This document shows positions 44,582 to 60,000 of a stretch of DNA of 64,000 nt, in pieces. The stretch lies in NCBI RefSeq assembly GCF_024223415.1, contig NZ_CP100500.1; one strand, given 5' to 3'. The notes beneath the pieces were generated by a model that saw only the letters and a list, made by a program, of their open reading frames with translations, was not told where the DNA came from and ran no database searches. Every line of letters starts with the position of its first letter. Position 1 is the stretch's first letter. The DNA comes from Escherichia coli. Its GTDB lineage: Bacteria; Pseudomonadota; Gammaproteobacteria; Enterobacterales; Enterobacteriaceae. The translations under genes and the position numbers were made by a program.

Positions 44582-46041
44582 TGAAAAAATTACTGCGTCT
44601 TTTTTTCCCGCTCTCGCTGCGGGTACGTTTTCTGTTGGCAACGGCAGCGGTAGTACTGGTGCTTTCGCTTGCCTACGGAATGGTCGCGCTGATCGGTTAT
44701 AGCGTCAGTTTCGATAAAACTACGTTTCGGCTGTTACGTGGCGAGAGCAATCTGTTCTATACCCTTGCGAAGTGGGAAAACAATAAGTTGCATGTCGAGT
44801 TACCCGAAAATATCGACAAGCAAAGCCCCACCATGACGCTAATTTATGATGAGAACGGGCAGCTTTTATGGGCGCAACGTGACGTGCCCTGGCTGATGAA
44901 GATGATCCAGCCTGACTGGCTGAAATCGAATGGTTTTCATGAAATTGAAGCGGATGTTAACGATACCAGCCTCTTGCTGAGTGGAGATCATTCAATACAG
45001 CAACAGTTGCAGGAAGTGCGGGAAGATGATGACGACGCGGAGATGACCCACTCGGTGGCGGTAAACGTCTACCCGGCAACATCGCGGATGCCAAAGTTAA
45101 CCATTGTGGTGGTGGATACCATTCCGGTGGAGCTAAAAAGTTCCTATATGGTCTGGAGCTGGTTTATCTATGTGCTCTCAGCCAATCTGCTGTTAGTGAT
45201 CCCGCTGCTGTGGGTCGCCGCCTGGTGGAGTTTACGCCCCATCGAAGCCCTGGCAAAAGAAGTCCGCGAACTGGAAGAACATAACCGCGAATTGCTCAAT
45301 CCAGCCACAACGCGAGAACTGACCAGTCTGGTACGAAACCTGAACCGATTGTTAAAAAGCGAACGCGAACGTTACGACAAATACCGTACAACGCTCACCG
45401 ACCTGACCCATAGTCTGAAAACGCCACTGGCGGTGCTGCAAAGTACGCTGCGTTCTCTGCGTAGTGAAAAGATGAGCGTCAGTGATGCTGAACCGGTAAT
45501 GCTGGAGCAAATCAGCCGCATTTCACAGCAAATTGGCTACTACCTGCATCGTGCCAGTATGCGCGGCGGGACATTGCTCAGCCGCGAGCTGCATCCGGTC
45601 GCCCCACTGCTGGACAATCTCACCTCGGCGCTGAACAAAGTGTATCAACGCAAAGGGGTCAATATCTCTCTCGATATTTCGCCAGAGATCAGCTTTGTCG
45701 GTGAGCAGAACGATTTTGTCGAGGTGATGGGCAATGTGCTGGATAATGCCTGTAAATATTGCCTCGAGTTTGTCGAAATTTCTGCAAGGCAAACCGACGA
45801 GCATCTCTATATTGTGGTCGAGGATGATGGACCCGGTATTCCATTAAGCAAGCGAGAGGTCATTTTCGACCGTGGTCAACGGGTTGATACTTTACGCCCT
45901 GGGCAAGGTGTGGGGCTGGCGGTAGCCCGCGAAATCACCGAGCAATATGAGGGTAAAATCGTCGCCGGAGAGAGCATGCTGGGCGGTGCGCGGATGGAGG
46001 TGATTTTTGGTCGCCAGCATTCTGCGCCGAAAGATGAATAA
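44581..46041 (+). CDS. phoQ: Sensor histidine kinase PhoQ
   Basis: 486-aa ORF overlapping the phoP stop; two TM segments, periplasmic sensor, HAMP and HisKA/HATPase domains. Confidence 0.97.
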
Positions 46042-46121
46042 ATATGTCCTTTTATCACCGATATTAGTTAATATATTGATTTAATTAAAAATATACACAA
46101 ACAAAAGTGCCAAAAATCGCA

Positions 46122-46147
46122 AATTAACTACACCATTAACTACACCG
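46122..46147. repeat. attL core: 26-bp direct repeat AATTAACTACACCATTAACTACACCG
   Basis: Identical to 61252-61277; internally two tandem ATTAACTACACC 12-mers. About 50 bp beyond each copy are imperfectly similar. Confidence 0.8.
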
Positions 46148-46987
46148 TTCGGCGCACTGTATGAAACAACGTGGAACAAATAGGCACAAGAAATATAAAG
46201 GCGGGTAATTTTAAGGGGGCGTTGCTGTCGATATGGGGATCCACATAACGGGGCTACCTGGCTTTTTTTCCGGTTAAATGTCAATCAGGCTGGTGGGCTT
46301 TACCTGTTCGGTAGGTGTTATGATTATCGTAATACCTTTCCCCCAATGGGGTAAAAGCATCAACCGTAACGAAAGTCGTTATGGTTGCCACCGATACTCC
46401 AAATTTGGGTATCACGAGTAAGCCCCAAAATCTGGGTGTTACTCTTACTACCCAAACTACGGGTAGTTTCCGTAGTTTCATGGTCGAGTTGCAGATCTGC
46501 AACTCCCCCATCAACCACAGGCGAATTTCCGCCTTCGGTCATTCCTTAATCATCTGCGTAATCATAATGATTATTCAGCCAGCTCAATTTTGAGCTTTGC
46601 TTTAAGTTCAGCGAGTTACCGCGCCGACTTCCTCAAATTGAGGTTTCCGAAAATATCAGTGGGTTAGCGATTAAGCAGATGGATAATTAACCTGCGAAAA
46701 TTTCGCAGGTTACATCAGCGACGTAATTCTCGCTGTTCCTGCCCGGAGGTGTCGACGAATTTCGTCGGAACCTAAGCCTGCCGGGAAGTCCGTACGTTAA
46801 ACGTACGGAGTTAATTCGACATCACACACTACGTTGTCAATTTGCAAAGGAGGGGCGGAAATCACCATACCTGCCACCCTGTCATACAGAAAGGGATTAC
46901 GATAATCGTAACAGGATACAACGCCGCCTGTAATCGTAACCAATTGATTTTTATGATGACGCAAATCTGCGTTATCAGTCCTCAAAG
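46148..46987. other. 840-bp non-coding arm of the island, rich in hairpins and short repeats
   Basis: No convincing ORF. Contains palindromes CCAAATTTGG, GTTGCAGATCTGCAAC, AACCTGCGAAAATTTCGCAGGTT, CGACGAATTTCGTCG, CCGTACGTTAAACGTACGG and TTACGATAATCGTAA, plus three ATCGTAA motifs. Confidence 0.4.
46163..46189 (+). repeat. Phased heptamer array 1 (GAAACAA, GGAACAA, GGCACAA at exact 10-bp spacing)
   Basis: Read directly; lies just inside attL. Confidence 0.7.
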
Positions 46988-47278
46988 TTACCGCCGCAAC
47001 CGTTCCGGCTTCTTCCACTGATAAGTGTTTTTCGCGCTCTCCTGATACATCGCCACGCGTCGACGGTATGCCAGCAACTCTAGTACTCTGATTCGTATGT
47101 CGCGCATATCCACGCCGTTAAGCTCAATACCGTCACGGCGCATCACCTCCGCCACAACACGCACATAATTTTCGGCGGTCACGCTGTCCGGCTGCGTGGC
47201 CTGTTCGTCATGCTGCTGGCTGATTCCGGTAACGCGGCGGATTAATCCCAGTAGTTCGGCTTCGCTCATTCTCGTCAT
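46988..47278 (-). CDS. Hypothetical protein (96 aa), last gene of the packaging operon
   Basis: ORF whose start overlaps the terL stop; no recognisable motif. Confidence 0.6.
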   Translation of the reverse strand: MTRMSEAELLGLIRRVTGISQQHDEQATQPDSVTAENYVRVVAEVMRRDGIELNGVDMRDIRIRVLELLAYRRRVAMYQESAKNTYQWKKPERLRR

Positions 47279-48936
47279 ACCCCATCAAACGCCGCAAGCC
47301 GCTCTTTGTGGCTGTCGCTCATATCGAATGCAAATTCCTCATGCTCTGCCTGGAATGTGCCAAACGCCATCAGCGCCGCAACGCTCGGGTCTATCTTGTT
47401 GGATGATTTTTTCTTGTTCGGCTTGATATTGGCGTTCGCGTCACTCTGCATCACAACATTACTCATTGACCAGGCCAGCACCGGATCACCACGATGCACA
47501 ATCACCTTCCGGTTAACAAAAACTTCGAACGATTTCGCCGCCGGACTGAAACGAAGGTATGTTTGCGGGAACGGCTCCACCTCAAATCCTGCGCCCTGTA
47601 GCTGCGTCATCAGGTGCGTGGCGTTCCATGTATCGAAGCCCACCAGCCGGATATTAAAATTTTCCGCGTCCTTCATGATGTCATCCCTGATACGGTCGTA
47701 ATCAATACAGTCGCCTGGCGTTGTGCGTATCCAGCCCGATTTTGCCCACTGGCGATAGATGGCGCGGTTTTTATTGGCGGGATTCTGTAGCTGCTGCTCC
47801 GGCAGATAATGACGGGAAACCAGCATGATGGTTTTACCAACCGGAAAGGCATAACACACGCTTGAAATATCATTTGTTGATGATAAATCCAGCCCCGCAT
47901 AGCACTCCTGCCCGTGTAAATCTTCCTCCGTGAACGTTCCGGCACACTCAGCCCATGCACCGTTACCCATCCACGGCGTAGCCCCCTGACACCAGATATT
48001 AAAGCGCTTTGTCATCATCTCCACCCACTGCGACGGAATACCCCGCGCTTTCTGGATGGTTGAGGCAAGTTTTTCACGATCGACGGAAACATCGATATTG
48101 GGATTCGCCTTTATCCACATCGCCGGATCGTCAACCTCGCTTTCATCATCCAGCTCGTAAATCATCACGAACATGGATTCATTAACCTCTTCACCATCCA
48201 GTATCTGACAGCAATAATCATAGTGCTGCTTACAGGCAGAAATAACGTTGCTTCCCGATGTGGTAATGGCGAATAACAGCCCGTCAGGACGCGCACCCAT
48301 CCCAAGTTCAAGCGCGGAATATACGCCGTTATCGGGGTGTAAATGGTATTCATCCACAATGGCAAGACTCGGGTTTGTCCCCTCAATGGTCGCCGCCTTT
48401 GCCGCCAGTGGCTTTAACAGGCTGTTGGTTTTCGGGTGTATCACCTTGTGCGCCTGAATATTTACCCGCTTTCGTAACGGTCGGGATAAAAGGCACATCT
48501 GACGCGCATCATCAAACACGATCCGCGCCTGATCACGACTCACGGCGGCGGTGTAAATATCCTGCTGCCCGTTTTCCATAACCAGAAACCAGTTAGCCAG
48601 GATAGCGGCGACCGTGGATTTGGCATTTTTTCGCGGTACTTCAATGAATGCGCTGGTGTATTTGCGCCGTCCGGTGGACTTAACCTTAAAGCCCAGGATG
48701 CACGCAAAGGCGAACTGCTGCCACGGCTCCAGTTCAATGGGGCTACCGCGCATTGCACCTTTTACGTGCGGGCACACCCTGGAAAAGGCAATAAACCGCT
48801 CCACGACCTCCGGATCGAACGTGTAAAGGGGGTTTTCAAGGTCAGAAAAATACCGTTTAACAGCCTGTTTCAGTCGTTTACAGGCCGTAATTTTGCCGTT
48901 TTTTACGCCTTCTGCGTACTCATGCCAGGCGGTCAA
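47275..48936 (-). CDS. Terminase large subunit
   Basis: 553-aa ORF with ATPase N-terminus and nuclease C-terminus typical of Terminase_1 family TerL; overlaps terS. Confidence 0.9.
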   Translation of the reverse strand: MTAWHEYAEGVKNGKITACKRLKQAVKRYFSDLENPLYTFDPEVVERFIAFSRVCPHVKGAMRGSPIELEPWQQFAFACILGFKVKSTGRRKYTSAFIEVPRKNAKSTVAAILANWFLVMENGQQDIYTAAVSRDQARIVFDDARQMCLLSRPLRKRVNIQAHKVIHPKTNSLLKPLAAKAATIEGTNPSLAIVDEYHLHPDNGVYSALELGMGARPDGLLFAITTSGSNVISACKQHYDYCCQILDGEEVNESMFVMIYELDDESEVDDPAMWIKANPNIDVSVDREKLASTIQKARGIPSQWVEMMTKRFNIWCQGATPWMGNGAWAECAGTFTEEDLHGQECYAGLDLSSTNDISSVCYAFPVGKTIMLVSRHYLPEQQLQNPANKNRAIYRQWAKSGWIRTTPGDCIDYDRIRDDIMKDAENFNIRLVGFDTWNATHLMTQLQGAGFEVEPFPQTYLRFSPAAKSFEVFVNRKVIVHRGDPVLAWSMSNVVMQSDANANIKPNKKKSSNKIDPSVAALMAFGTFQAEHEEFAFDMSDSHKERLAAFDGV

Positions 48937-49321
48937 GCTCGTCCTCTTCCTCTGTTTCCGGTGGATTTCTGCGTCGGCTTACCGGGTCAAAACCCAGCAA
49001 AGAAGCCATTTTGATCATTATTCTTTCTGCGTCAGCCTTTGCGCTCAGGGCGGGGTTTCTGCTCTCGCTGCCCTGACTGTTAACAATGCTGAACCCGCGC
49101 GTCGCAAGGTCTTCGACGGCTTTGCGGTATAGGGAGTAGTTAACGCAATACAGCTCAAGATTGCTCCAGTCGGCGGGGGTAAGGTCTTCCCGCCCGGAAA
49201 GCTGGCGCGATTTTTCCTTCCATTGCCTGACGGCAATTTCATCCAGGTAAGCGGGGGCTTTTGGTGGTCTTGCCATGTTCTTTTTTCGCCCAATTATTTT
49301 CAAAAAAATTCCCGTGCACAA
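48920..49321 (-). CDS. Terminase small subunit (P27 family)
   Basis: 133-aa ORF MARPPKAPAYLDEIAVRQWKEKSRQLSGREDLTPADWSNLELYCVNYSLYRKA... resembles P27-family TerS. Confidence 0.8.
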   Translation of the reverse strand: MCTGIFLKIIGRKKNMARPPKAPAYLDEIAVRQWKEKSRQLSGREDLTPADWSNLELYCVNYSLYRKAVEDLATRGFSIVNSQGSESRNPALSAKADAERIMIKMASLLGFDPVSRRRNPPETEEEDELDRLA

Positions 49322-49565
49322 AAATTTGAGCAGGCGGTCGGTTCTGGGCAGGGTCGGGTTCGTCCTGAAAACTCCCCCCCACCCCGTCCGGCTGCCTCAT
49401 CAGCGATTGCGAAAACATTCCATGACCTCGCGGTCACGGTCGGTTAATCGCTTCGCTGTGGTGCGTTTTGTGCGCCCTGTCCTGTTGGCTTTGTGCTCTG
49501 TCTCCTGTGTCTTCCATGTGTCACGCTGCCTTATCAGTCCACGTATCAGCCTGGTTTGCTCCTGT
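49322..49565. other. Predicted cos/packaging-site region between HNH and terS
   Basis: 244-bp GC-rich non-coding gap containing CCCCCCCACCCC (49373-49384). In HK97-type genomes cos lies between the HNH endonuclease gene and terS. Confidence 0.35.
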
Positions 49566-50006
49566 TCAGTCATCATCGCCATACATCCAGTCGTTACGGT
49601 GTGCCGCCCGTTCTTCCTGCTCGCGATACATGCCCGCTTTACGGTTTGCTTTCGTGGCTGGATCTTCCCGTGTGGTCTTACGGTTGTGGCACGTCTGGCA
49701 CAATGCCTGGTGATTCCACTCAGGCCAGAAGAGAACATCATTACCGCCATCGATGGGGATAATGTGATCCACCACCACGGCGGGCGTGTATATTCCTTTT
49801 TCCAGGCAATGCGCACATAACGGGTTTTTACTCAGGTACATAGCGCGGTATTTCTCCCACTGCCTCGTATACCCTCGCTCCCTGCTGCTGCCTCTCCGGC
49901 TGTCCTGCTGCTGGCGTGCGCTGCGTCTGTGCTCCTCACACTTCCCGGACTTCACGCGCCTGTTGCAGCCTGGTTGTGTGCATCGTCTCAATGGTTGCCA
50001 CGGCAT
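49566..50006 (-). CDS. HNH endonuclease (terminase-associated)
   Basis: 146-aa ORF with Cys-rich zinc finger and HNH motif (CAHC...DHIIP...NHQALCQTCHNRK). Confidence 0.85.
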   Translation of the reverse strand: MPWQPLRRCTQPGCNRRVKSGKCEEHRRSARQQQDSRRGSSRERGYTRQWEKYRAMYLSKNPLCAHCLEKGIYTPAVVVDHIIPIDGGNDVLFWPEWNHQALCQTCHNRKTTREDPATKANRKAGMYREQEERAAHRNDWMYGDDD

Positions 50007-50302
50007 CAGTACACCCCCACATCACGATAAACCGACCAGAGCGCGGAAATCGTCAGGGGAATTTCTTTTGTATCGGTATCGCCAAGCGTTGTCCGGTACT
50101 CGTACAGTTGCGAGATGTACATCAGGCAACCAATTTTTATTGCAGGGGTAAATTCCAGGCCGTCATCAAAACGCCTGCCAATATGCTTCTGGCATACCTC
50201 CAGCGCCGCGCTTATGTATGCCTGAATCAGTGTGTCTTCTGTGTTACCATCTATGCGGCAGTGAAGTTTGGCCTCTTCCAGGGTTATTTTTTCTGCTGTC
50301 AT
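50006..50302 (-). CDS. Head-tail connector protein (phage gp6-like)
   Basis: 98-aa ORF MTAEKITLEEAKLHCRIDGNTEDTLIQAYISAALEVCQKHIGRRF... typical of the gp6-like connector family. Confidence 0.7.
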   Translation of the reverse strand: MTAEKITLEEAKLHCRIDGNTEDTLIQAYISAALEVCQKHIGRRFDDGLEFTPAIKIGCLMYISQLYEYRTTLGDTDTKEIPLTISALWSVYRDVGVY

Positions 50303-50637
50303 TTTTCTGTACCCACCTTTGCCAGAATTTCCAGCCGGGTTCTTTTCGCATCAGGTAAGGGGATCCCGATGATATTAAGCGTGCTCCCGGCAAAAGCGCC
50401 GGTAAGCACTTTCAGGCGACTGGCGGCGGATATGTCGCCACGATAGCGAACCCATACCCGAATCGTTGCAGGTGCGGTTTCTGCGCCTGCGGTCAGTAAT
50501 TCCCGTCCGCTGATCCCCTTGACCTCTGCCCAGATGGTTTCCCCTTCCGTCCATATCTGCTGGATCGCACCTGACGGCAGGCGCTGTGTGGTAAATGTCA
50601 TAATCGTCACCCGGTCCCGCATCTTTCCGGCTATCAT
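50299..50637 (-). CDS. Head closure / head-tail adaptor protein
   Basis: 112-aa ORF between portal and gp6-like gene with overlapping start and stop. Confidence 0.65.
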   Translation of the reverse strand: MIAGKMRDRVTIMTFTTQRLPSGAIQQIWTEGETIWAEVKGISGRELLTAGAETAPATIRVWVRYRGDISAASRLKVLTGAFAGSTLNIIGIPLPDAKRTRLEILAKVGTEK

Positions 50638-51851
50638 TCGTCACCGCCCTTACTGTTCTTGCTGATTGTCACTTCCTGCTTCCATGCCTGGCTGAACTCG
50701 TCGCCACCTTCACGCGGCGGCATTCCCTCACGCTCACGGGCTTCGTTCGGATTGATGATCCCGTTCTTAATCCCTTTCTCATACGTGGCGTAACGTTCGG
50801 TAGGGGTGGCGCGTAATAAATCGGCTGAATCAAACTCAACCAGATAACGGGTACCAGGTACGGGAGAAGCCACCAGCAAAGCAGCCTTGATTTGCTGTTC
50901 GAAGTTCGCCAGCCACGGGCGCATTGTCATGGTCAGAAACGCGCGGCTTGCCTCACTGAAATTGCTGTAGGTGCTGTTGCTGTATTCCTGCAAAAAAATC
51001 GGCGAGACGTTGAACATTCGGGCGATGTCTTCAATGGTAAAGCGACGGGAGGCCAGCCATTCAGCATCCTGATTACTCATGCCCAGCTGCTGATAGCTCA
51101 TACCCCCTTCAAGGATGGGCGTTTTTCCGGCGTTTCTGGCCCCTTTGTAGCGTTCCAGTGCGGCTAATGCCTGTTTGCCCTTCACGCCGTCCAGCCATTC
51201 GCCTGACGTGATAACCCCTGCCGCCATCATGCCATCACGCATCACGCTCGCGCCGTGGCGTTGTTGGGCCAGCCCAAGCCCCAGCGATTCGCGGCAGATG
51301 GTTACAGGTGAGCGCCCCATAAAGCCGTCATCCGTGGAGTAACGAAGGTGGAGAACCTCCCACGGTAAATAGTTGCGGGTGTTTCCGGTGTAGGCGTCAG
51401 TGATGCAGTAGCGCCAGTTATGCTCACCTGTCTGCTCCACGTTCACCGACTGCGGCGGGTAAGGATGTAAAGCCACCGGAAAACCATCACGCCCCCACTG
51501 AATAACCGCATAAGCATTACCGTTTAACAGGCAGTGGCGGATCATCATTCGCTTAAACTGGTAGGGGGTTTGCCATGCGTTCGGGCGCTCGTTGAGGATG
51601 TGATCGACCGGATGAGAATCAAGCCACTCGCGGGCCTCCTTCCCCTTCTCATTGCGTACCAGGTACAGGTAACACGGCATGGTAGCCACCGCCTCAGAGA
51701 TGACCGTCACGGCGTTCATGACGGCGGGCAGTGATTCCGCTGTCCCCGATGATACGTACTCACCCGCCCCCGTGTTCGATGTGCCCGCCAGCGCCATAAA
51801 TTCATCAAGCGTCATGCTGCGCTGCTCTTTTTTTCTTCTGAAAAGCCACAT
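50634..51851 (-). CDS. Portal protein (HK97 family)
   Basis: 405-aa ORF; alternative start MTLDEFMALAG at 51815. Confidence 0.85.
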   Translation of the reverse strand: MWLFRRKKEQRSMTLDEFMALAGTSNTGAGEYVSSGTAESLPAVMNAVTVISEAVATMPCYLYLVRNEKGKEAREWLDSHPVDHILNERPNAWQTPYQFKRMMIRHCLLNGNAYAVIQWGRDGFPVALHPYPPQSVNVEQTGEHNWRYCITDAYTGNTRNYLPWEVLHLRYSTDDGFMGRSPVTICRESLGLGLAQQRHGASVMRDGMMAAGVITSGEWLDGVKGKQALAALERYKGARNAGKTPILEGGMSYQQLGMSNQDAEWLASRRFTIEDIARMFNVSPIFLQEYSNSTYSNFSEASRAFLTMTMRPWLANFEQQIKAALLVASPVPGTRYLVEFDSADLLRATPTERYATYEKGIKNGIINPNEAREREGMPPREGGDEFSQAWKQEVTISKNSKGGDE

Positions 51852-51852
51852 A

Positions 51853-52425
51853 TCACACCCCCGCTAAATCCACCCACCAGCGGCGATTATCCGCACGCGG
51901 CATTTTTTCGGGGTGCTGCTCATACAGGGAACGGCGGGCCAGCTCCACGCCGGAATCGGGGTAAGCCGGTACCGATGTAACGGTAATTTCGTACAGTTCC
52001 GCCACCAGCACGGTACGAACGCATGGATCTGTTGTGGTATCCCATACATCCTTACGGGAGCGAAAGCCAAAGCTCATGCCGGATATATCACCGCGTTTAA
52101 CCAGTTCGATAACGTCGCGCCCTGTACTGGTATCCGGTGGGGTCAGTTCAAAGCGTAACCCTGTTTCGTCCTCTTCCAGTTTCAGCGTGCCGGAACGGGT
52201 GCGCCCCAGTAACATGCTGTGGTCATGCTCATACAGGCCGCGAACGTCATTACCCGCCGCAAGCCATTCAGTAAACGCCCCCCGCTGGAATTTTTCGTAA
52301 AACTCACCCCATAACAGTTCTGAAAGCTTATCCCAGCGAACAACGTAGCCCGTCAGCGTACCGGCTCCGCTCGTGGTGATTTCCGATGACCGGATTTCCA
52401 TACTCTTCATAATTTTTTCACCCAT
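51853..52425 (-). CDS. Prohead protease (HK97 family)
   Basis: 190-aa ORF between capsid and portal genes; resembles HK97-type prohead protease. Confidence 0.8.
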   Translation of the reverse strand: MGEKIMKSMEIRSSEITTSGAGTLTGYVVRWDKLSELLWGEFYEKFQRGAFTEWLAAGNDVRGLYEHDHSMLLGRTRSGTLKLEEDETGLRFELTPPDTSTGRDVIELVKRGDISGMSFGFRSRKDVWDTTTDPCVRTVLVAELYEITVTSVPAYPDSGVELARRSLYEQHPEKMPRADNRRWWVDLAGV

Positions 52426-52464
52426 AAAACACTAAAGGGGCTTTTAAGCCCCTTCTGTATGCTG

Positions 52465-53622
52465 TTAATCGTCGTCCTGTGGCAGTTCCAGAATCTTGAT
52501 CGCGTTCGAATCCACCACGCCACCGCCTAAATATTTCTGCGTGAAAATTTTGATGAAGCCCGGCTCTGTGATGTTGTCCGGTCTGGTGCGAACACCTGTT
52601 TCGTGATCAACAATGTAGTAACCGCGTTTGAAGTCACCCAGGGCAATAACGTTATCAGGCATAAACTCCAGATATTCGACCGGAAGGCCCAGCAACGTAT
52701 CAGGATCACCCGCCTGTAAACGGTCGCGCCAGATGTAATCACCGTTCGCGTTCTTCACCTTCTGAAGTTTTGCCGCCGTTGTGGAGTTAACCACCCATAC
52801 CGCGTTCTTGCGGTATTTTTTACGCAATGCAAATTTCAGGTCGATCAGCGGGTCCGCAGATGTCCACGCCAGACCGTGAGCGGGCTTGATAACCTGCAAC
52901 GTTCCGAAGTCGCGTTCTTTGTCGCTCTTCTCTGCACGGGGGACGGATAAAAAGCCTTTTGCTTTTTTGTCACCGTCGCCCACAACCAGATCGCTTTCTT
53001 CGGTTTCCGTGAAGGTGTCGCCAATCTCGGCCGTCAGCCATGAAAGGATGTCCACATCGGAAAAATCCACGATTTCCTGTGTGGTGCGCGGGTACGCATA
53101 GACCGGATACAGCTTAATGCTCACCTCGTTAATCTGCGGGGTGCTGGTCTGTTCGCGTGCCTTACCCTCTTCACCGTGGTTAACGGTCGCACCGCCAGCG
53201 GAAACAAGCTGCTTAAACTCGTTGCTGCTGATTTTCTTCACGGTACAGATGCGGCGCATGGTGGATTCATCCGCCAGCATTCGCATGATTTCGGTGTTCA
53301 GTTCGGGGATAACGGTATAACCACCATCAGCGGGAACGCCTGTACTTAATGCGCGGGTTTCACCTGTCAGAATGTAGTTGCGTAGTTCTGCGGGGTCAGT
53401 GGTCTGACTGCTTTTACCTGGCTTGCTGCGCTCTTCGTCTGCAATGGCTTCAAGGCGGGAAATGTCTTTATCGAGGGATTCAGCTTTAGCGCGTAATTCA
53501 TCAAATTTTGCGCCCTCAGCATCGTTAAGACTGCGGTTTTCTTTTTCCGCGTTCTCCAGCATGTCGCGCATCTGATTTTTAATGGCGGTTTTCTGCTGGC
53601 GTAATTCGATTATTCTCGGCAT
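52465..53622 (-). CDS. Major capsid protein (HK97 fold)
   Basis: 385-aa product from MPRIIELRQQKTAIKNQMRDMLENAEK (ATG at 53622): N-terminal delta/scaffold-like coiled coil then capsid domain. The track ORF extends to a TTG at 53667. Confidence 0.85.
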   Translation of the reverse strand: MPRIIELRQQKTAIKNQMRDMLENAEKENRSLNDAEGAKFDELRAKAESLDKDISRLEAIADEERSKPGKSSQTTDPAELRNYILTGETRALSTGVPADGGYTVIPELNTEIMRMLADESTMRRICTVKKISSNEFKQLVSAGGATVNHGEEGKAREQTSTPQINEVSIKLYPVYAYPRTTQEIVDFSDVDILSWLTAEIGDTFTETEESDLVVGDGDKKAKGFLSVPRAEKSDKERDFGTLQVIKPAHGLAWTSADPLIDLKFALRKKYRKNAVWVVNSTTAAKLQKVKNANGDYIWRDRLQAGDPDTLLGLPVEYLEFMPDNVIALGDFKRGYYIVDHETGVRTRPDNITEPGFIKIFTQKYLGGGVVDSNAIKILELPQDDD

Positions 53623-53836
53623 AAAAAAAAGTCCTGGGGTTAAGTAAGGAACTCCAGGACGCGGCAAAAACTCAACCGTTTTTCATAAGGAAATCAGCAA
53701 TCGCACCGATCGTTTTCCCGCCTGGTAATGAATATTGGCGAGCACATTAACAGGCGGGAAAGTGGCCCCAGCGTCCTGGCACCACGGGCGAGAATAATCA
53801 TGATTCAGTTCGAGTAAAATATGCCGATCCGCTCAG

Positions 53837-53863
53837 TGAACAACCTGGAACAACCACGAACAA
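53837..53863 (+). repeat. Phased heptamer array 2 (TGAACAA, GGAACAA, CGAACAA at exact 10-bp spacing)
   Basis: Read directly; lies in the divergent region between the capsid gene and the moron. Confidence 0.7.
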
Positions 53864-53937
53864 ATAATTTACAAAACCTGAAAAAATAAATAAACTGTTC
53901 CGTACATTTTCTGCTCGTTAATCAGGAGGAACGAACT

Positions 53938-54411
53938 ATGTCAGAAAATGAACTGAAAAAAGCAATGTTCATTCAGCAACGATTGCAGATTCTCCACCTT
54001 GGTAAACACTATGATGAGTTCAGTGATTCTTACGTGTATGCCTGGGAGGCAGATGTTTATCCTTTCTTGCAGGATGGCGACGGAAGTATTCCTGCTCGCC
54101 CACATGAAATTTACGAAGAGTTTTTCGGCACATCTAAAAACAAAGCCAAAAAGATATACGATCGTCTGTGCAAAGCCTGGCACGACCAGGAGGCACTCAC
54201 ATTCTATAAACTAGAAAGTGAATATGGTGTAACAAGTAGCAGCATGCACAGATGGACACGAAGTGATTTACTTCACATCTGCCGCTATCTGTATCTTGAG
54301 GGGTGTTTCGATAAAGATTTCTGGGAAACATTACTGGAAAACGGAAAATGCCCAAGCGAAGCACTTTACCTTAGCGATGAATTTAATCGCGATACAGAGA
54401 TCGACTTCTAA
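53938..54411 (+). CDS. Hypothetical protein (157 aa), moron cargo gene
   Basis: Only + strand gene in the island interior; strong SD (CAGGAGGAACGAACTATG); own hairpin terminator; visibly lower GC than flanking genes; acidic C-terminus; no recognisable motif. Confidence 0.7.
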   Translation: MSENELKKAMFIQQRLQILHLGKHYDEFSDSYVYAWEADVYPFLQDGDGSIPARPHEIYEEFFGTSKNKAKKIYDRLCKAWHDQEALTFYKLESEYGVTSSSMHRWTRSDLLHICRYLYLEGCFDKDFWETLLENGKCPSEALYLSDEFNRDTEIDF

Positions 54412-54416
54412 AAAAA

Positions 54417-54446
54417 TGGCCTGGAAAATACCAGGCCATTATTATT
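54417..54446. terminator. Bidirectional terminator after the moron
   Basis: TGGCCTGG-aaaata-CCAGGCCA hairpin flanked by an A-run and a T-rich tract. Confidence 0.8.
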
Positions 54447-54734
54447 CTACCGTTTCACGGGATCACGCATTCTGCGCCTTATTTTCCACAGATATTCGAT
54501 CATCGCTTCCACCTGCTCACGGTTGGTTGCGAAAATTTCCCCGGTCAGTGAGCTACGCAGAAAATCATGATGATCCACAAAAAATAACGCATCGGAAGAA
54601 AGCAGCCGGAGATATTTTTTTGCTGTCGTGCTTTCCAGATCATCAAAATCATGAAGCTTTTTATGTTGCTGGACTTCTTCAAATGTCACTGGCATGTTTC
54701 CTCCTGCTACCACGATACCAGAAACAGTTAACAA
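54447..54734 (-). CDS. Hypothetical protein (95 aa)
   Basis: ORF at the distal end of the leftward replication operon; no motif recognised. Confidence 0.55.
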   Translation of the reverse strand: MLTVSGIVVAGGNMPVTFEEVQQHKKLHDFDDLESTTAKKYLRLLSSDALFFVDHHDFLRSSLTGEIFATNREQVEAMIEYLWKIRRRMRDPVKR

Positions 54735-54740
54735 CCGTTA

Positions 54741-55022
54741 TCAATTATCCCCTTTTTTAGGGTAGTTCCTGAACATCTCACCGCCAGGCTTCTGTAAGCC
54801 CATCCCGGTATGTGTGCGGTTTATGGCCTCTTTCAGTATTCCGAAATTATCCGGTATGACTGGTGGGCGTGCTGCCTTACGGATACATTCCGCGCGACGC
54901 TTTGCCACTTGTTCGCGCTCCTTGTCAGTGCTCACCAGCCACATAACATCAGCCCATCGCGCGGCCGCCCTCCGGTAAAATCCTTTCGCCTCCAGTTCCT
55001 CCGCTATCCGGTCATGTACCAT
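54741..55022 (-). CDS. Hypothetical protein (93 aa)
   Basis: Start placed at ATG 55022, 10 nt after the ssb stop (the track ORF extends into ssb); MVHDRIAEELEAKGFYRRAAARWADVMWLVSTDKEREQVAKRRAECIRKA... Possible small regulator; unverified. Confidence 0.5.
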   Translation of the reverse strand: MVHDRIAEELEAKGFYRRAAARWADVMWLVSTDKEREQVAKRRAECIRKAARPPVIPDNFGILKEAINRTHTGMGLQKPGGEMFRNYPKKGDN

Positions 55023-55032
55023 CGTCACCCCC

Positions 55033-55443
55033 TCAGAACGGAATATCATCACCGTAAGGGTCATCGCCTCCCGCTGGTGGCTGATTACCCTGTGTGCCTG
55101 TGGTTTTGCGTCTGTTCCCACCAGGACGTGCCGCACGCGCACTGATTACGCTGTCTGCGATAACCTGCCAGCCCTGCCGCGTTTCCCCGTTCTGTCCGGT
55201 CCACTGGCTGACCTGCATCGTGCCGGATACGCTGGCAACGTCGCCTTTTTGATGTTTAGCCAGAAAGTCGGCCTGTTTGCCAAATGCGATGACCGATAAC
55301 CATAACGTCGCCTGTCCGTCCTGTGCCTGGCCGCATGGTAAAGATACCGCCATACGCGCCAGCGTCATCGGTGTACCCTTACTGGTCTGTTTTACCTGCG
55401 GGTCGTCCACCAGCCGCCCGTAAGCTGCAATTTGTGCTGTCAT
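55033..55443 (-). CDS. ssb: Single-stranded DNA-binding protein
   Basis: 136-aa ORF with OB-fold-like core resembling E. coli SSB and the C-terminal acidic tail ...DDPYGDDIPF. Confidence 0.85.
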   Translation of the reverse strand: MTAQIAAYGRLVDDPQVKQTSKGTPMTLARMAVSLPCGQAQDGQATLWLSVIAFGKQADFLAKHQKGDVASVSGTMQVSQWTGQNGETRQGWQVIADSVISARAARPGGNRRKTTGTQGNQPPAGGDDPYGDDIPF

Positions 55444-55452
55444 ATTGCCACC

Positions 55453-55758
55453 TCAGTGAAGCGATCCGGCGTTGTTCTTTTTCATCTCTTCCATCATTTT
55501 TTCAGTGAGCATTACGCACTGAAAACCCATGTTTTTGATGTCTACGGGTTTCATGCCTTTGTCAGTGGATATCACAGGCAGAATATCCTGATACACATCG
55601 CCGCCAGGGTAACTAAGCACACAAAGCGCCCATGATGCCACGGGTGAGGATCCTTGGTCTGTTTCAACCCACCAGCCTGGTGTAGCTGCGCTTATTTGCA
55701 GAATCGTGATCCGTCCGTTGTGCTTGTAAAATTTTTCACCACATTTTGGTTCGCTCAT
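55453..55758 (-). CDS. Hypothetical protein (101 aa)
   Basis: ORF between ssb and the origin. Confidence 0.55.
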   Translation of the reverse strand: MSEPKCGEKFYKHNGRITILQISAATPGWWVETDQGSSPVASWALCVLSYPGGDVYQDILPVISTDKGMKPVDIKNMGFQCVMLTEKMMEEMKKNNAGSLH

Positions 55759-56036
55759 GCTTCCACCTCTCCGGTTTTAACGTTGATGGTTGTCACCTGT
55801 TCCGCTCCGGCAATCTCCCGTTCTGTCAGCGTGGCAAAATTTGCCGCTACCGTTGTCATGAATGCGCTTATCAGTTCGGGATGTGCTTTCGCGTATCCTT
55901 CTCCCGCGTGGCGGTCTATCGTTCTGATTGCCACCTTTAAGGCGTGCTCTGTCATGTCTAACGCTTTATATTTTGGCGCTGTCTTATCTCTGGTTTTTCT
56001 GTTCATTCCCCACCACTCCCCACTTTTGCTCCCCAC
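55755..56036 (-). CDS. Hypothetical protein (about 83-93 aa)
   Basis: ORF immediately downstream of the iteron array; true start probably the internal MNRKTRDK (56006) because the upstream codons lie within the iterons. Confidence 0.45.
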   Translation of the reverse strand: MGSKSGEWWGMNRKTRDKTAPKYKALDMTEHALKVAIRTIDRHAGEGYAKAHPELISAFMTTVAANFATLTEREIAGAEQVTTINVKTGEVEA

Positions 56037-56221
56037 TTTTTAAATTCCCCACTTGCTCCCCACCTCGTTTTTTGAGTGAATCTAATGCTTTGTTTTTCAT
56101 TGCGTTTTTTGCTCCCCACTTTTTTGGATGTATACAGGTGGGAAAGTGGGGAATTATGTTTCAATTTTGTTAAATTCCCCACTCTCCCCACTTTTACTAC
56201 CCACTTTTTACAGTGGGTAAA
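56007..56221. repeat. Iteron array, putative replication origin of the island
   Basis: At least 9 direct copies of (C/T)TCCCCAC(TTTT) at irregular spacing plus 3 inverted copies (AGTGGGGAA, GGTGGGAAA, CAGTGGGTAAA) with A/T-rich spacers, directly 3' of the rep gene. Confidence 0.8.
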
Positions 56222-57614
56222 CATCATCCCCATCGACACAAATCACGCCGTCTTTTTCCAGCTTGTACAGCCAGCGCCGGAAGTGCTTCATCTCATACCC
56301 CAGCTTTTTCATATCGTCGCGGAGAAGGGCGATAGTGCATGGCTCTTTGTGTGCCGTCCGCGTTCTGATGCACTGCCATAGCGCGGCGTGATTCTCCGAT
56401 TTGTTGCCTGCTTCCTCGATGCGCTCCAGTTCAGCAGGGGCGCGGGGAACGTCAATCACCACCATAGACACAATCTCTTCGCCATCTGTATCGGTGAACA
56501 CCTCCACGCTTTTAAGGTCGTATGCACTCTCTTTTGGCTCCTCTGCGTCCTTCATCTTCGTACACGCCGCCACCAGTGCTGTAACGTCTGAATTTTCCCG
56601 GCTGATTCGGTACTCTGCATCAAGCGCGGCACGGAATGCGCTGGAACCACGCGCCCCCTTTGTTTCATCCTTGCCGGAATGGTGAACCACCAGCACCGTG
56701 GCCCCTGTGGCCTGCTTTATCGCGTCACACCCCTGGATAAATGCGCCCATATCACGGGAATCATTTTCATCATTCCCACCAAAGCAACGGGCCAGTGTGT
56801 CGATCACAATCAGCCGCACATTTTCGCCCGTTCTGCTCTTAACAAGTCCGGCAGTCCTGATAACCTGCTCCACATAGTCAGGCGATGCAGGGAAAACAGG
56901 CGCGTTAATGATGCACAAATCTGTAACCACCTTGTCGTGGGTTATCTCCCACGCCTTAACGCGGCGTTTTACGCCCATGCTGCCTTCACCAGCGATATAG
57001 ATAACCGCCCCCTTACTTACCCTGCGGCCTCCCCATGCCATACCTGTGGCAACATGGCACGACCAGGAAATGGCGAGGAACGATTTATAAGAACCGCTGG
57101 CCCCGTAGGTGCTGCATAATGACTCAGCCGGAATAAGCCCCTTAATTACGTAGCTTTGCTGCGCGTCGAATCCCTCAGAACCCCATGAGATGGGAAGCGT
57201 GATTTTTCGCTTTCCGCCATTCATGACCAGGCTTTCCCCTCTCTCCCATGTTTCCCGTAGTCGTGGTAGCTGGTCGCTCCAGTCCTCCAGCAGTTCGAAA
57301 TTTTCAGAAAGTAGCCGCGCCTCCTGGACTCCGGCGATCGCCAGTTTTGTGGCAATGGTCAGCATCTGCATATCGTCCAGGTTTCCGGCGCGTATGACCT
57401 TTGCCCTGTATCGTCCTTCATCAACAATCTGTAAGTTGTCCAGTTCGCTTAACTGATAACGGCCCAGGTAAACCGGAGGGATGGGATCGCCTGCTTTTTT
57501 GGCCTGTGCAATCATGTAATGTTCTGCAAAGGAGTGAGCATTATCACCCGCAAAAATAACCGCCTCAGTGTGTTTATCTTTCGGTAACAGTTTTACGTTC
57601 GGTGCAAGTTTCAT
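56208..57614 (-). CDS. Replication initiator / RepA-like P-loop ATPase (AAA_25-type helicase domain)
   Basis: 468-aa ORF with central P-loop-like segment (YGASGSYKS...LIVIDTLARCF...VLVVHHSGKDETKG), the pattern of RepA/DnaB-like helicases; N-terminal 150 aa unassigned. Confidence 0.7.
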   Translation of the reverse strand: MKLAPNVKLLPKDKHTEAVIFAGDNAHSFAEHYMIAQAKKAGDPIPPVYLGRYQLSELDNLQIVDEGRYRAKVIRAGNLDDMQMLTIATKLAIAGVQEARLLSENFELLEDWSDQLPRLRETWERGESLVMNGGKRKITLPISWGSEGFDAQQSYVIKGLIPAESLCSTYGASGSYKSFLAISWSCHVATGMAWGGRRVSKGAVIYIAGEGSMGVKRRVKAWEITHDKVVTDLCIINAPVFPASPDYVEQVIRTAGLVKSRTGENVRLIVIDTLARCFGGNDENDSRDMGAFIQGCDAIKQATGATVLVVHHSGKDETKGARGSSAFRAALDAEYRISRENSDVTALVAACTKMKDAEEPKESAYDLKSVEVFTDTDGEEIVSMVVIDVPRAPAELERIEEAGNKSENHAALWQCIRTRTAHKEPCTIALLRDDMKKLGYEMKHFRRWLYKLEKDGVICVDGDDVYPL

Positions 57615-57898
57615 TTCTTACCCCCTGCGACCAGCATTTCACGGATTTTGCGGATATAACTTGCAGCACGTTTCTGATTAACGGCTTTACGATGGCCCAC
57701 CAGCGTGAAATCACGCCGGAACTGATAAACAGGCATAACGCAGTCATATTCGTAGCCTTCACGGCGGTAAGTTACGCGACGTTCCTCCACGCTTTTAATT
57801 GTTACCGTGCCGCCGTAGTTATCTTTGAAAATATCGCCGGGGCGGATTTCAGGCCGAGCGGGGCCGCTGGCAGTAAAGCCAGAATATTTAAGTTTCAT
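57611..57898 (-). CDS. Hypothetical protein (95 aa), translationally coupled to rep
   Basis: Stop overlaps the rep start. Confidence 0.55.
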   Translation of the reverse strand: MKLKYSGFTASGPARPEIRPGDIFKDNYGGTVTIKSVEERRVTYRREGYEYDCVMPVYQFRRDFTLVGHRKAVNQKRAASYIRKIREMLVAGGKK

Positions 57899-57903
57899 TA
57901 TTT

Positions 57904-58137
57904 TTATTCTCCGGTGTGCTGTTCTTTATATCTGTCGTGCAATAGGTCTATTTCCTGCAACTCTGTTATTACAGGTTCAAGGAGAGTTATCAGAGATTTA
58001 ATAATCCGCGCATTCTTTACATCACGCTCATTATCGCCAAATGTATCTGGATACATTTGCAATATTTCGTACATACCTTCAGCGTAAGCAATGGCACTAA
58101 ATGCGCGGTCTATTGTTTCGAGGTAAATATCACGCAT
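57904..58137 (-). CDS. Hypothetical protein (77 aa)
   Basis: Tightly packed with flanking small ORFs on the same strand. Confidence 0.5.
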   Translation of the reverse strand: MRDIYLETIDRAFSAIAYAEGMYEILQMYPDTFGDNERDVKNARIIKSLITLLEPVITELQEIDLLHDRYKEQHTGE

Positions 58138-58138
58138 A

Positions 58139-58387
58139 TTAATCCCCGTCCGTCGTTTTTCTTAAAATAACCTCTGTCACGAAATCAGCATAATCGGCGG
58201 CGATATTCAGTACATCAAGCCCCGTTGATTTATATTCTCTCGTGGAAAGTAAGAAAAAAGCCGCTCTAATAAGCTCTGGCATTGACGAAAGCGCATCAGC
58301 CGCATCATCAGGAACGCCGGAAAATTCCTGTTTCAGGGAATTAAAACGATCATCACGCATAACCCCCCCCATTTTCACAATCAGCAA
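58139..58387 (-). CDS. Hypothetical protein (about 73-82 aa)
   Basis: Tightly packed small ORF; start may be the internal Met at 58360. Confidence 0.45.
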   Translation of the reverse strand: MLIVKMGGVMRDDRFNSLKQEFSGVPDDAADALSSMPELIRAAFFLLSTREYKSTGLDVLNIAADYADFVTEVILRKTTDGD

Positions 58388-58634
58388 TCAGGATGGCTTT
58401 GGCCTCATTCAGTGCCATATCAGCGGTAAGCTGTGCGTAGGCCAGCAAATGCGGGATTATTGCCCCTGTATATTCCGTCTCTCTGGTAATGTGTTTTTCT
58501 GCGGTTGCTGCCGTGCATGAAATATCAATCAGCGCGTGCATCAGCGTTTTGATGGCTTCGGCGGCTGCGTCCGGACGGGTGTTATTGCACATGGCACACC
58601 TCCTGACGGATACGGGCGGCGAATACAGCGACAC
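58353..58634 (-). CDS. Hypothetical protein (up to 93 aa), first gene of the leftward early operon
   Basis: ORF immediately downstream of the divergent promoter region; start uncertain. Confidence 0.4.
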   Translation of the reverse strand: MSLYSPPVSVRRCAMCNNTRPDAAAEAIKTLMHALIDISCTAATAEKHITRETEYTGAIIPHLLAYAQLTADMALNEAKAILIADCENGGGYA

Positions 58635-58872
58635 AACCGGACGGGCAACGGTTACGCGCTTCGCGTTCCGTCCAGGCGGTCACGTGGATAATTTGAGATT
58701 CTCCGGCACTCAGTGCCAGAAAACGCCACACAAAGGCGGTTTGTGTGTGCGCTAGTCGTGGGGTATGCTGTGTTCCAGCCATAATCGTTACTCCTGTTAA
58801 CGGTTTGGTTAGACGCCCTGCATGTGTTACAGCACTGCGGGGCGTTGTCTTTTTAACGGCTTTCGTGATAGG

Positions 58873-58914
58873 GTGTACACCTATCAAGCAAAAAAATAAC
58901 GCTATAGGTGTACA
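58873..58914. promoter_or_regulatory. Palindromic operator overlapping the RHH gene start
   Basis: Perfect 12-bp inverted repeat GTGTACACCTAT (58873-58884) and ATAGGTGTACAC (58903-58914), each half containing the self-complementary GTGTACAC; ends 1 bp before the RHH ATG. Confidence 0.7.
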
Positions 58915-58915
58915 C

Positions 58916-59110
58916 ATGTCAACAGTTATTAAGCGAGATAAAAAACCAAAGGGAACAGGAAAAGCCCCCCCATTCCATATGCGAATAGCTCCAGAACTGA
59001 AAGAGCAGTTTGATAATGAGGCCAGCAATGATGGGGTAAGCCTAGCCAACTGGCTTAAAGAGTTGGGACGCAGTGAACTGAAGCGGCGCGGTATAGAACC
59101 CAAAGGTTGA
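58916..59110 (+). CDS. Ribbon-helix-helix (Arc/MetJ-type) DNA-binding protein, candidate island repressor
   Basis: 64-aa product MSTVIKRDKKPKGTGKAPPFHMRIAPELKEQFDNEASNDGVSLANWLKELGRSELKRRGIEPKG fits a beta-strand plus two helices RHH fold; divergent from the early operon. The track ORF 58745..59110 is an upstream extension. Confidence 0.6.
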   Translation: MSTVIKRDKKPKGTGKAPPFHMRIAPELKEQFDNEASNDGVSLANWLKELGRSELKRRGIEPKG

Positions 59111-59267
59111 TAGCCCACCAGCAAGCCAGGACACTGATCACATTGGCCACCGTGACAGGTGGCCTTTTCTTTGCCCGTTATCCGGCAATTGTGGCGCTTC
59201 GCCACACGGTTGATATAATCCCACTGCTCATATTCATTTTTTGCGCAGCAGGTAAATTGTTCAGAAA

Positions 59268-59296
59268 GGCGGCTCCTTATCGGGGCCGCTTTTTTT
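59268..59296 (+). terminator. Rho-independent terminator downstream of the RHH gene
   Basis: GGCGGCTCC-ttatc-GGGGCCGC hairpin (one G-U wobble) followed by TTTTTTT. Confidence 0.7.
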
Positions 59297-59437
59297 ATGC
59301 CTGAAAAACCGCGATTTTGTTGTTTTTCAGTTTCACAAGGCCGAACGAAGCCCCGCCCCTGTTCCGGCGTATATCCAGTCTTCATGGTTAAATCTCTGTA
59401 TTAGTGGATGGGTGGCGGCTGTGTGCCGCCAGTCTTT

Positions 59438-59626
59438 TTAGTGAACTGCCTCGCAGCTTTCCTTCCATGCCAGAACTTCGGATAAAGACCAGCCAACGGA
59501 ACGACCGCCCAGCTTACGCCGTGATGGGAATTGTCCGGCCTTTTCCAGGCGGTAGCGGCATGAGCGGCTAAGCCCTGTTAGCTTTTCGCATTCTTTTTCA
59601 CGTATAAAACGATCAGTGCTTAACAC
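59438..59626 (-). CDS. alpA: AlpA-family transcriptional regulator
   Basis: 62-aa ORF MLSTDRFIREKECEKLTGLSRSCRYRLEKAGQFPSRRKLGGRSVGWSLSEVLAWKE with the AlpA/MerR-like HTH pattern; sits next to the integrase as in P4-like elements and PICIs. Confidence 0.8.
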   Translation of the reverse strand: MLSTDRFIREKECEKLTGLSRSCRYRLEKAGQFPSRRKLGGRSVGWSLSEVLAWKESCEAVH

Positions 59627-59908
59627 TATTGCCCCCTTTCGTTTCTTAAAGAGTTATTTCGTGTTCTATTGCGTTGGTATGTGTCTGATTGTGTCAGGGT
59701 GATTCAGAGTTGGCAAATGTTGATGGCGGGTATTTTACAGAAACGGGGTGATTTTAATAAAAAACATTTTAATTCAGTATTATGCAAAGGCATAAAATCT
59801 CGTTTCATGCCTTTTTTCTCACTATTTAAAGCGTTATTCGCTAATGTATAAAAAACCAGTTGAGCATTAAAAATCAGCAACTTATAAATCTGTATATTTT
59901 TTGGCCTC

Positions 59909-59955
59909 TTGTTCGTGGTTGTTTCACGTTGTTGCGTATTGTTGCACGTTGTATC
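59909..59955 (-). repeat. Phased heptamer array 3 (five copies at exact 10-bp spacing, opposite orientation)
   Basis: Plus strand reads TTGTTCG, TTGTTTC, TTGTTGC, TTGTTGC, TTGTATC, the reverse complements of CGAACAA, GAAACAA, GCAACAA, GCAACAA, GATACAA; lies between the int stop and alpA. Confidence 0.7.
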
Positions 59956-60000
59956 TGTGCACTTATCCAGTATGCGCATACTGAAAAAACACGAAAAAAA

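Follow-up and report, generated by a model that had tools for sequence, protein, structure and literature searches.

A mosaic, hairpin-rich 3' tail and a conserved 130-base element in a capsid-forming satellite of Escherichia coli

Phage-inducible chromosomal islands (PICIs) and capsid-forming PICIs (cf-PICIs) carry virulence and anti-phage genes between bacteria, and this cargo sits at their 3' ends; immune systems have been found encoded at either the 5' or the 3' end of PICIs (PMC11364771). The cf-PICI EcCIEDL933, described by Alqurainy et al. (bioRxiv 10.1101/2022.09.08.507074), carries in order an integrase gene (int) and genes for primase, capsid, protease, portal, connectors, HNH, TerS and TerL. 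Here we analyse 840 bp (positions 46148-46987) of a 64,000-nucleotide stretch of E. coli DNA (NCBI RefSeq assembly GCF_024223415.1, contig NZ_CP100500.1; "the window"), which an initial annotation made from the sequence alone had described as a hairpin-rich non-coding arm between attL and the packaging operon of a satellite. The satellite context assumed there was right: the insert is an EcCIEDL933-like cf-PICI next to phoQ, with the gene order of EcCIEDL933, and the 840 bp are its non-coding 3' tail, bounded on one side by orf96, the last late gene, and on the other by the classical P' arm. To judge from its homologues, successive recombination events have put the tail together out of modules in circulation among E. 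coli PICIs of any integrase or packaging type. One of them, module B, is a previously undescribed, highly conserved 130-base element of E. coli satellites. Neither the non-coding tail nor its modules are described in the cf-PICI, Rpp-cos, helper-embedded-satellite and EcCIMP1 papers.

Module B in a gene-free, mosaic tail

The 840 bp hold 10 perfect hairpins or palindromes (stem of at least 7, loop of at most 8), compared with 0.46 +/- 0.71 in dinucleotide shuffles (maximum 3, n = 300), and rank first among 840-bp stretches of the window, for which the median is 0 and the 95th percentile 2. Fold z-scores range from -6.0 to -7.7 over the two strands. The hairpins, palindromes, overlapping stems and ATCGTAA motifs to which the initial annotation drew attention are all present, and four of the window's 12 copies of ATCGTAA fall within the tail. 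These features are:

46326, 46905 and 46933 (plus strand) and 46897 (minus strand): ATCGTAA motifs
46398: palindrome CCAAATTTGG
46447-46467 and 46454-46478: overlapping stems
46486-46505: palindrome GAGTTGCAGATCTGCAACTC
46688-46712: perfect palindrome with 12-bp arms
46753-46767: perfect palindrome with 7-bp arms
46789-46809: perfect palindrome with 10-bp arms
46897-46911: palindrome TTACGATAATCGTAA

Next in the window for density of perfect palindromes (5 per 840 bp) is 58381-59600, in the island's regulatory region and near a repressor-like gene (58582-59385).

The claim that the stretch holds no plausible open reading frame (ORF) was likewise borne out, the six frames being rich in stops, the small ORFs having no family match and no start codon being kept among homologues; six-frame translation, NCBIfam searches and tblastn with orf96 revealed neither a coding gene nor a pseudogene. 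Sigma-70 promoters show no excess over chance in the tail, and the 840 bp found no match among 50,697 phage records.

Resolved against 148 loci from complete genomes, IMG/VR and metagenomes, the tail consists of five modules whose distributions are mutually independent. The whole 840 bp occur in none of 5426 complete E. coli genomes and parts of them in 1358. From the att-proximal side to the last late gene the order is as follows:

46148-46387: module A, the att-proximal part, with a Chi site at 46289-46296 (plus strand), the palindrome TTATGATTATCGTAA at 46318-46332, and CCCCAATGGGG
46351-46387, minus strand: terminator-like hairpin CAACCAUAACGA-CUU-UCGUUACGGUUG followed by AUGCUUUUAC, just past module B
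46388-46518, minus strand: module B, about 130 nt, with hairpins H1 (46392-46414), H2 (46417-46449), H3 (46454-46478) and H4 (46486-46505)
46520-46533: flanking hairpin GGCGAATTTCCGCC, adjoining module B
46544-46622, minus strand: module C, with a hairpin at 46581-46596 and the palindrome TAATCATAATGATTA at 46559-46573
46623-46711, minus strand: module D, with the hairpins CCTCAATTTGAGG and 46688-46712
46712-46987: module E, a rare insert, with three palindromes (46753-46767, 46789-46809, 46897-46911), a match to the IHF consensus (46937-46949) and, at 46955-46976, the hairpin past the gene's stop codon
46988-47278, minus strand: orf96 (96 aa), the last late gene, a member of the 93-aa family phrog_1561 (function unknown; hereafter orf93)

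Module B is present in 708 of the 5426 complete genomes (13%), at a median of one place per genome. Its copies are 93-100% identical (35 of 36 distinct flanked copies aligned), whereas the adjacent 93-aa gene is conserved at only 78-92%. Its borders are sharp, and they join at least five types of 5' flank and three types of 3' flank in many combinations. A member of the orf93 family constantly accompanies the tail modules. Of 85 copies of B, 83 lie 48-792 nt downstream of orf93 and co-oriented with it, so that B cannot be regarded as a free mobile repeat; a repeat of the MITE, REP or ERIC type was rejected in view of its single place per genome, its fixed orientation to orf93 and the lack of terminal repeats at its borders. 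Islands bearing B are found at phoQ, tqsA, ileX, hpt and thiM as well as in a lambdoid prophage capsid gene, and they span three unrelated head and packaging modules. The exact pattern of B had no match in species-representative genomes, a search for remote homologues (nhmmer) returned only B against its own reverse complement, and no paper containing its sequence was found in a literature search. Internally, H4 is a perfect 20-bp palindrome, H3 is a 9-nt tandem repeat with two alternative stems (the overlapping one at 46447-46467), and H2 and H1 together form an imperfect long palindrome of about 70 nt that matches its own reverse complement. Three reading frames are open across B, but their starts are not conserved, and inspection showed two of them to be stopped or truncated in the diverged copy; inspection also showed that a sigma-54-like sequence beside B is not conserved.

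The other modules have histories of their own. Module A is shared at 80-99% identity with PICIs at phoQ and tqsA and is absent from those at ileX, hpt and thiM. The position of the flanking hairpin at 46520-46533 is taken in other lineages by hairpins of unrelated sequence. Module C is a displaced copy of a unit whose usual starting point is the orf93 stop codon, which in this island is about 365 bp distant. We call it displaced on the strength of its alignments (73-93%) with sequences starting at real orf93 stops in four other islands (loci L025, L045, L059 and L073); a relic of the orf93 3' end in the window itself was rejected, direct alignment scoring 18 against 16 +/- 2 in shuffles, which is not significant. 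Module D is widespread among PICI tails (80-96% identity) and often present there more than once. Module E is full-length in two of the 5426 complete genomes (100% identity) and partial in one more; the full-length copies belong to a TerS-type PICI at thiM, where E again abuts the 93-aa gene, and E is also found in an IMG/VR contig (L077). A 31-bp part of E (46745-46775), which includes the palindrome CGACGAATTTCGTCG and encodes GSDEIRRHL, is identical to coding sequence of the ORF6N/Bro-N genes of other islands (100% to positions 2501-2531 of L147, with unrelated surrounding DNA), so that at least one of the hairpins listed by the initial annotation is a gene fragment.

Maintained hairpins, Chi sites and the cargo slot

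Most of 38 distinct tails have a hairpin at a fixed position, about 21-37 nt past the 93-aa gene's stop codon. It is built from at least 10 unrelated stems (ACGCAA, GTGCA, GCCCA, TTCGCC, GCGCAA, GCTCAA, CCACG, CTCCTCA and others) around an A/U loop of the AAAAUU type. In the window it lies at 46955-46976, with the displaced copy in module C at 46581-46596. The stem of the latter pairs GCUC with GAGC where other islands pair GCGC with GCGC, and the module D stem at 46688-46712 has two compensated pairs (CCTGCG/CGCAGG, CCTACG/CGTAGG, ACTACG/CGTAGT). The comparison of homologues for compensatory changes, which had been put forward as a check on an RNA role, thus revealed clear compensation in the post-stop, C and D hairpins; module B is nearly invariant. 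Read on the plus strand, the module C hairpin resembles a terminator.

The predicted folds of module B are very stable, with z-scores of -7.7 and -6.8. Its alignment has 40 pairs and 94% of cells paired; five pairs are changed on both sides, three of them in the flanking hairpin, most pairs never vary, and the RNAalifold covariation term is -0.25. Two pairs of H1 are changed on both sides, one of them in a series running from C-G through U.G to U-A that fits a minus-strand RNA. In the only diverged lineage of B (the types of loci L087 and L136) H4 is kept through a double change from G-C to A-T, and H2 and part of H1 are broken. Weak covariation and the broken stems leave an RNA role for B possible but unproven. 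The search with Rfam covariance models that had also been proposed gave no family at its curated threshold in the tail. The manA RNA motif (RF01745) aligned over its full length on the minus strand (46427-46596) at 21.6 bits (E = 0.004; gathering threshold 55.2), its pseudoknot unmatched; we rejected it, as the match needs the unlinked modules C and B side by side and falls to 18.2 bits in L023 and to none in L006, which has B without C. The sole above-threshold Rfam match in the window, the small RNA (sRNA) C0299 (18832-18910, minus strand, 111.9 bits), is unrelated to the island.

The terminator-like hairpin just past B (46351-46387) folds at -10.6 kcal/mol alone and at -20.3 with its context (z = -3.5), and is kept in A-type tails including that of the O157:H7 island. 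A strict terminator scan found none on the minus strand of the window, having missed this hairpin owing to one stem mismatch; a lenient scan gave 46387-46361 followed by AUGCUUUUA. In tails of type ii, a terminator-like hairpin and U tract after B pass the strict scan. The hairpin at 46351-46387 is the best candidate for the 3' end of the late-operon transcript.

Chi (GCTGGTGG) occurs 12 times in the 15.4-kb island, at positions spanning 46289-60346 and 10 times on the gene-bearing minus strand, and six times elsewhere in the window (48.6 kb); for the window as a whole, shuffles lead one to expect 1.5. In this orientation Chi would counter RecBCD that enters from a cos end on the HNH side, and this suggests that satellite DNA is protected when replicating or packaged. 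Across 70 distinct tails the mean is 1.8 Chi per kb, an average that is inflated by the many tails sharing modules. A perfect Chi abuts B in many tails. In locus L146 (E. coli A34), three tandem units of a stop, a hairpin (AATTTT loop) and Chi lie directly 3' of the 93-aa gene, at about 2700-2880. Two direct copies of B surround a segment of about 320 bp bearing iterons in L076 (4629-5194), L113 and L127; in L076 the AT-rich core of the segment is surrounded by TGCGGGTTA repeats, three direct and three inverted, and the whole looks like an origin or an integrated cassette. L087 (E. coli PK8261, 4153-6542) is a TerS-type PICI within the major capsid gene of a lambdoid prophage, that is, a helper-embedded satellite, and has an abortive-infection (Abi) gene between module B and the att junction. 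The position of this gene, the immune systems described at PICI ends (PMC11364771) and the data on Chi and on duplicated B together point to the tail as a cargo slot and a place of frequent recombination. In the island studied here this accessory-gene slot at the 3' end is empty.

The island, its attachment sites and its packaging region

The gene order purB-phoP-phoQ, insert, roxA-pepT belongs to a chromosome of E. coli type, and all genes of the insert are on the minus strand. Matches to PHROG families define its main genes:

47275-48936: TerL
48920-49321: TerS
56208-57614: primase-helicase
60001-61251: integrase

Further PHROG matches are to a major head protein, a protease, a portal and an HNH protein, with E-values from 1e-38 to 1e-181 for the head and packaging set. 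The insert thus has the HK97-type head and packaging genes of a cf-PICI, head-tail connectors included, together with an integrase at one end, flanking repeats at an att site of its own and a size in the class of 10-15 kb (15.4 kb between the junction repeats); neither tail nor lysis genes were found in it from the ORF list and PHROG searches. Its packaging module is 87% identical at the nucleotide level to that of the O157:H7 island at the same site, where RefSeq annotates the same genes. Size and insertion site in O157:H7 match those of EcCIEDL933, and the O157:H7 island at phoQ is probably EcCIEDL933 itself, the mobilisable prototype. A 91-aa ORF adjoining int matched no PHROG family. As to orf96, its AlphaFold model is helical (pLDDT 70), and no lead on its function came from that model, a PDB sequence search, PHROG, NCBIfam or a BFVD fold search.

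Comparison with the empty phoQ-roxA site of K-12 placed the junction repeat and with it the left attachment site:

46040-46049: attL junction repeat AAATATGTCC, overlapping the phoQ stop codon, with its partner at 61402-61411
46069-46081, minus strand: IHF-consensus site AATCAATATATTA (pattern WATCAANNNNTTR; a consensus match only), between core and arm repeats
46123-46146, plus strand: two tandem arm-type repeats ATTAACTACACC, the same pair recurring at 61253-61276

What had been called attL (46122-46147) is therefore not the crossover site. It is one copy of a 26-bp direct repeat (the other at 61252-61277) made of ATTAACTACACC twice in tandem, and lies inside the element on both arms; the right-hand pair abuts the int start codon. 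The tandem arm motif is also found near the end of 31 other PICI tails, and in L100 and L140 it occurs once more about 10 kb off, fitting the expectation of two arms. The stretch 46040-46147 thus has the make-up of an attP arm, with direct repeats present on both arms and an IHF-consensus site between core and arm sites. Core, IHF site and arm repeats all end by 46147. The classical P' arm therefore spans 46050-46147, with the 840 bp on its far side: the integrase-arm and IHF sites that had been suspected do exist, but to the left of 46148. This correction matters for mapping of the island.

Could the 840 bp nonetheless be an extended P' arm, whose integrase arm-type and IHF sites would be needed for excision and integration? 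Module A does travel with particular att sites (phoQ and tqsA), and a second IHF-consensus match lies at 46937-46949, within module E. The motif ACAACGTG(A/C)AACAA / GAAACAACGTGGAACAA stands beside both arm-repeat pairs, at 46164-46180 and at about 61295-61320 (ACAACGTGAAACAA beside attR), and recurs reverse-complemented downstream of int, between it and the next gene (59919-59952); it is perhaps bound by a regulator or an excisionase. Within the 840 bp the only candidate sites for an accessory protein are the TTAYGATNATCRTAA palindrome pair (46318 and 46897), which has exactly two copies in 64 kb, both in the tail and within a 25-nt inverted repeat. Against such an arm, however, all of its classical elements lie outside the 840 bp, its length of more than 900 bp would be unusual, and module A alone tracks the att site: modules B to E co-occur with unrelated att sites and integrases, being found at phoQ, tqsA, ileX, hpt and thiM and inside a prophage. 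We regard this role as very unlikely.

Still less probable, to the point of being scarcely credible, is a packaging site (cos or pac) or a replication origin, as which hairpin-rich non-coding DNA adjoining terminase genes might be read, all the more as the tail of L076 has an iteron and AT-rich segment. In this island the likely origin is an array of iterons (TTGCTCCCCAC / CCCCACTTTTT, at least five copies) at 55997-56210, which directly follows the primase-helicase gene; the tail itself has none and was rejected as one. A lambda-type cos was rejected too, there being no cosN like GGGCGGCGACCT with two mismatches or fewer in 46000-47300. The O157:H7 island at the same site has neither module B nor module E, and B occurs with three unrelated terminase and capsid modules. 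In Rpp-type PICIs, moreover, cos sits directly upstream of rpp (PMC9026076). The suggestion of a packaging or replication element made in the initial annotation thus goes unsupported. We note that the 244-bp gap between the HNH and terS genes (49322-49565) is the expected position of cos in HNH-dependent packaging; in HNH-dependent phages, cos is expected upstream of terS.

Possible roles of the tail, and known systems

We tentatively favour, as a reading that may well hold, that the tail is a structured 3' untranslated region (UTR) of the late operon and at the same time an empty cargo slot and a Chi-rich recombination joint. Transcribed on the minus strand, the tail would form a hairpin-studded 3' UTR of about 630 nt on the packaging-operon mRNA, which would end at the terminator-like hairpin at 46387-46351. 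The hairpins would set the 3' end of the mRNA and shield it. They would also curb transcription running on into attP and int when the island is an excised circle, or into phoQ antisense when it is integrated, while the conserved modules and nearby Chi sites could act as homologous crossover points at which Chi-driven recombination swaps tails and cargo. Several observations weigh against this proposal. Beside the outcome of the strict terminator scan, the stems broken without compensation in the diverged B lineage and the inflated Chi average, the post-stop hairpins have no U tract on either strand, and 7 of the 10 palindromes have loops of at most 2 nt and are perfect through an A/T centre, which fits DNA symmetry better than RNA hairpins. 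The fold z-scores are equally strong on both strands, and the excess of G.U-type intermediates favouring the minus strand (about 9 to 4) is not significant. Finally, conservation of B above that of the adjacent gene is not explained by a mere UTR or recombination anchor.

That last point would be explained, together with the linkage to orf93 across unrelated integrases and capsids, if B, alone or with the terminator, were a satellite-specific structured RNA, either an sRNA derived from the 3' UTR or a cis-acting element, which could serve in helper-satellite interplay, host regulation or retroregulation of the RNase III type. We think it rather unlikely, yet conceivable, that B is such a new RNA, arising from the 3' end of the PICI late operon on helper induction and acting in cis or trans on satellite, helper or host. 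Its sharp borders, spread and conservation, its fixed orientation downstream of orf93, the terminator-like hairpins that follow it in two flank types, its very stable fold and the doubly changed pairs of H1 all speak for this; the failure to match an Rfam family other than through the non-conserved juxtaposition of C and B, the mostly invariant pairs, the stems broken in the diverged lineage, the absence of a conserved promoter (by promoter scan and inspection) and of any mention of the sequence in the literature searched speak against it. Alternatively, the palindromes may work as DNA, B being a joint for site-specific or hotspot recombination and the others sites for dimeric proteins or cruciforms. 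Strand symmetry and the perfect A/T centres agree with this, as do the many combinations of flanks that B links, the Chi abutting it, the confinement of TTAYGATNATCRTAA to the tail, and the paired direct copies of B in L076, L113 and L127, which are the expected product of a circle integrating at B. The palindromes all differ in sequence, however, so that one protein could not recognise every one of them; a candidate recombinase was not identified, the fixed orientation to orf93 is not demanded by such a model, and homologous recombination within 130 conserved bases would explain the shuffling of flanks equally well. We think a DNA-level role rather unlikely, yet conceivable. Lastly, most of the tail may have no function, being what past gains and losses of cargo and decaying genes have left behind, as the rarity of E and the ORF6N gene fragment that contributes one of its "hairpins", the displaced post-stop segment in C and the lack of B and E in the O157 island would allow. 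We consider this unlikely, since neutral decay would erode perfect palindromes, whereas stems are here kept by compensatory change and B is more strongly conserved than the gene flanking it. None of the models considered accounts for the extreme conservation of B.

The cargo slot of these satellites has a conserved non-coding grammar, made up of the post-stop hairpin, Chi, terminator-like hairpins and a 130-nt module that roughly one complete E. coli genome in eight carries. Such landmarks should help to delimit satellites, to predict the places of cargo exchange and to design synthetic PICIs. Should B turn out to act as an RNA or as a site of recombination, a widespread class of satellites would have in it a cis element not described before; otherwise the region is an ordinary though striking mosaic tail.

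Set beside the described systems, the tail occupies the position of the 3' accessory region of other PICIs but is gene-free, and it carries two modules (B and E) that the O157:H7 island lacks. The attachment region resembles a lambda-type attP in its shared short core repeat, IHF-consensus site and tandem direct repeats on both arms, with the difference that these elements lie at 46040-46147 and 61253-61411, outside the 840 bp. Lambdoid phages also have module junctions at which short, sharp-bordered conserved segments link interchangeable modules in many combinations; B differs from these boundary or linker sequences in its greater length, its strongly palindromic make-up and its constant place downstream of one particular gene. 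As with the lambda sib element, other 3' hairpin retroregulators and REP-like stabilisers, the hairpins here stand past an operon and beside attP, and are so placed that they could influence the fate of the mRNA and read-through across attP. The differences are that this tail stays joined to the late operon whether the island is integrated or excised, and that its hairpins are specific to PICIs and not dispersed over the genome.

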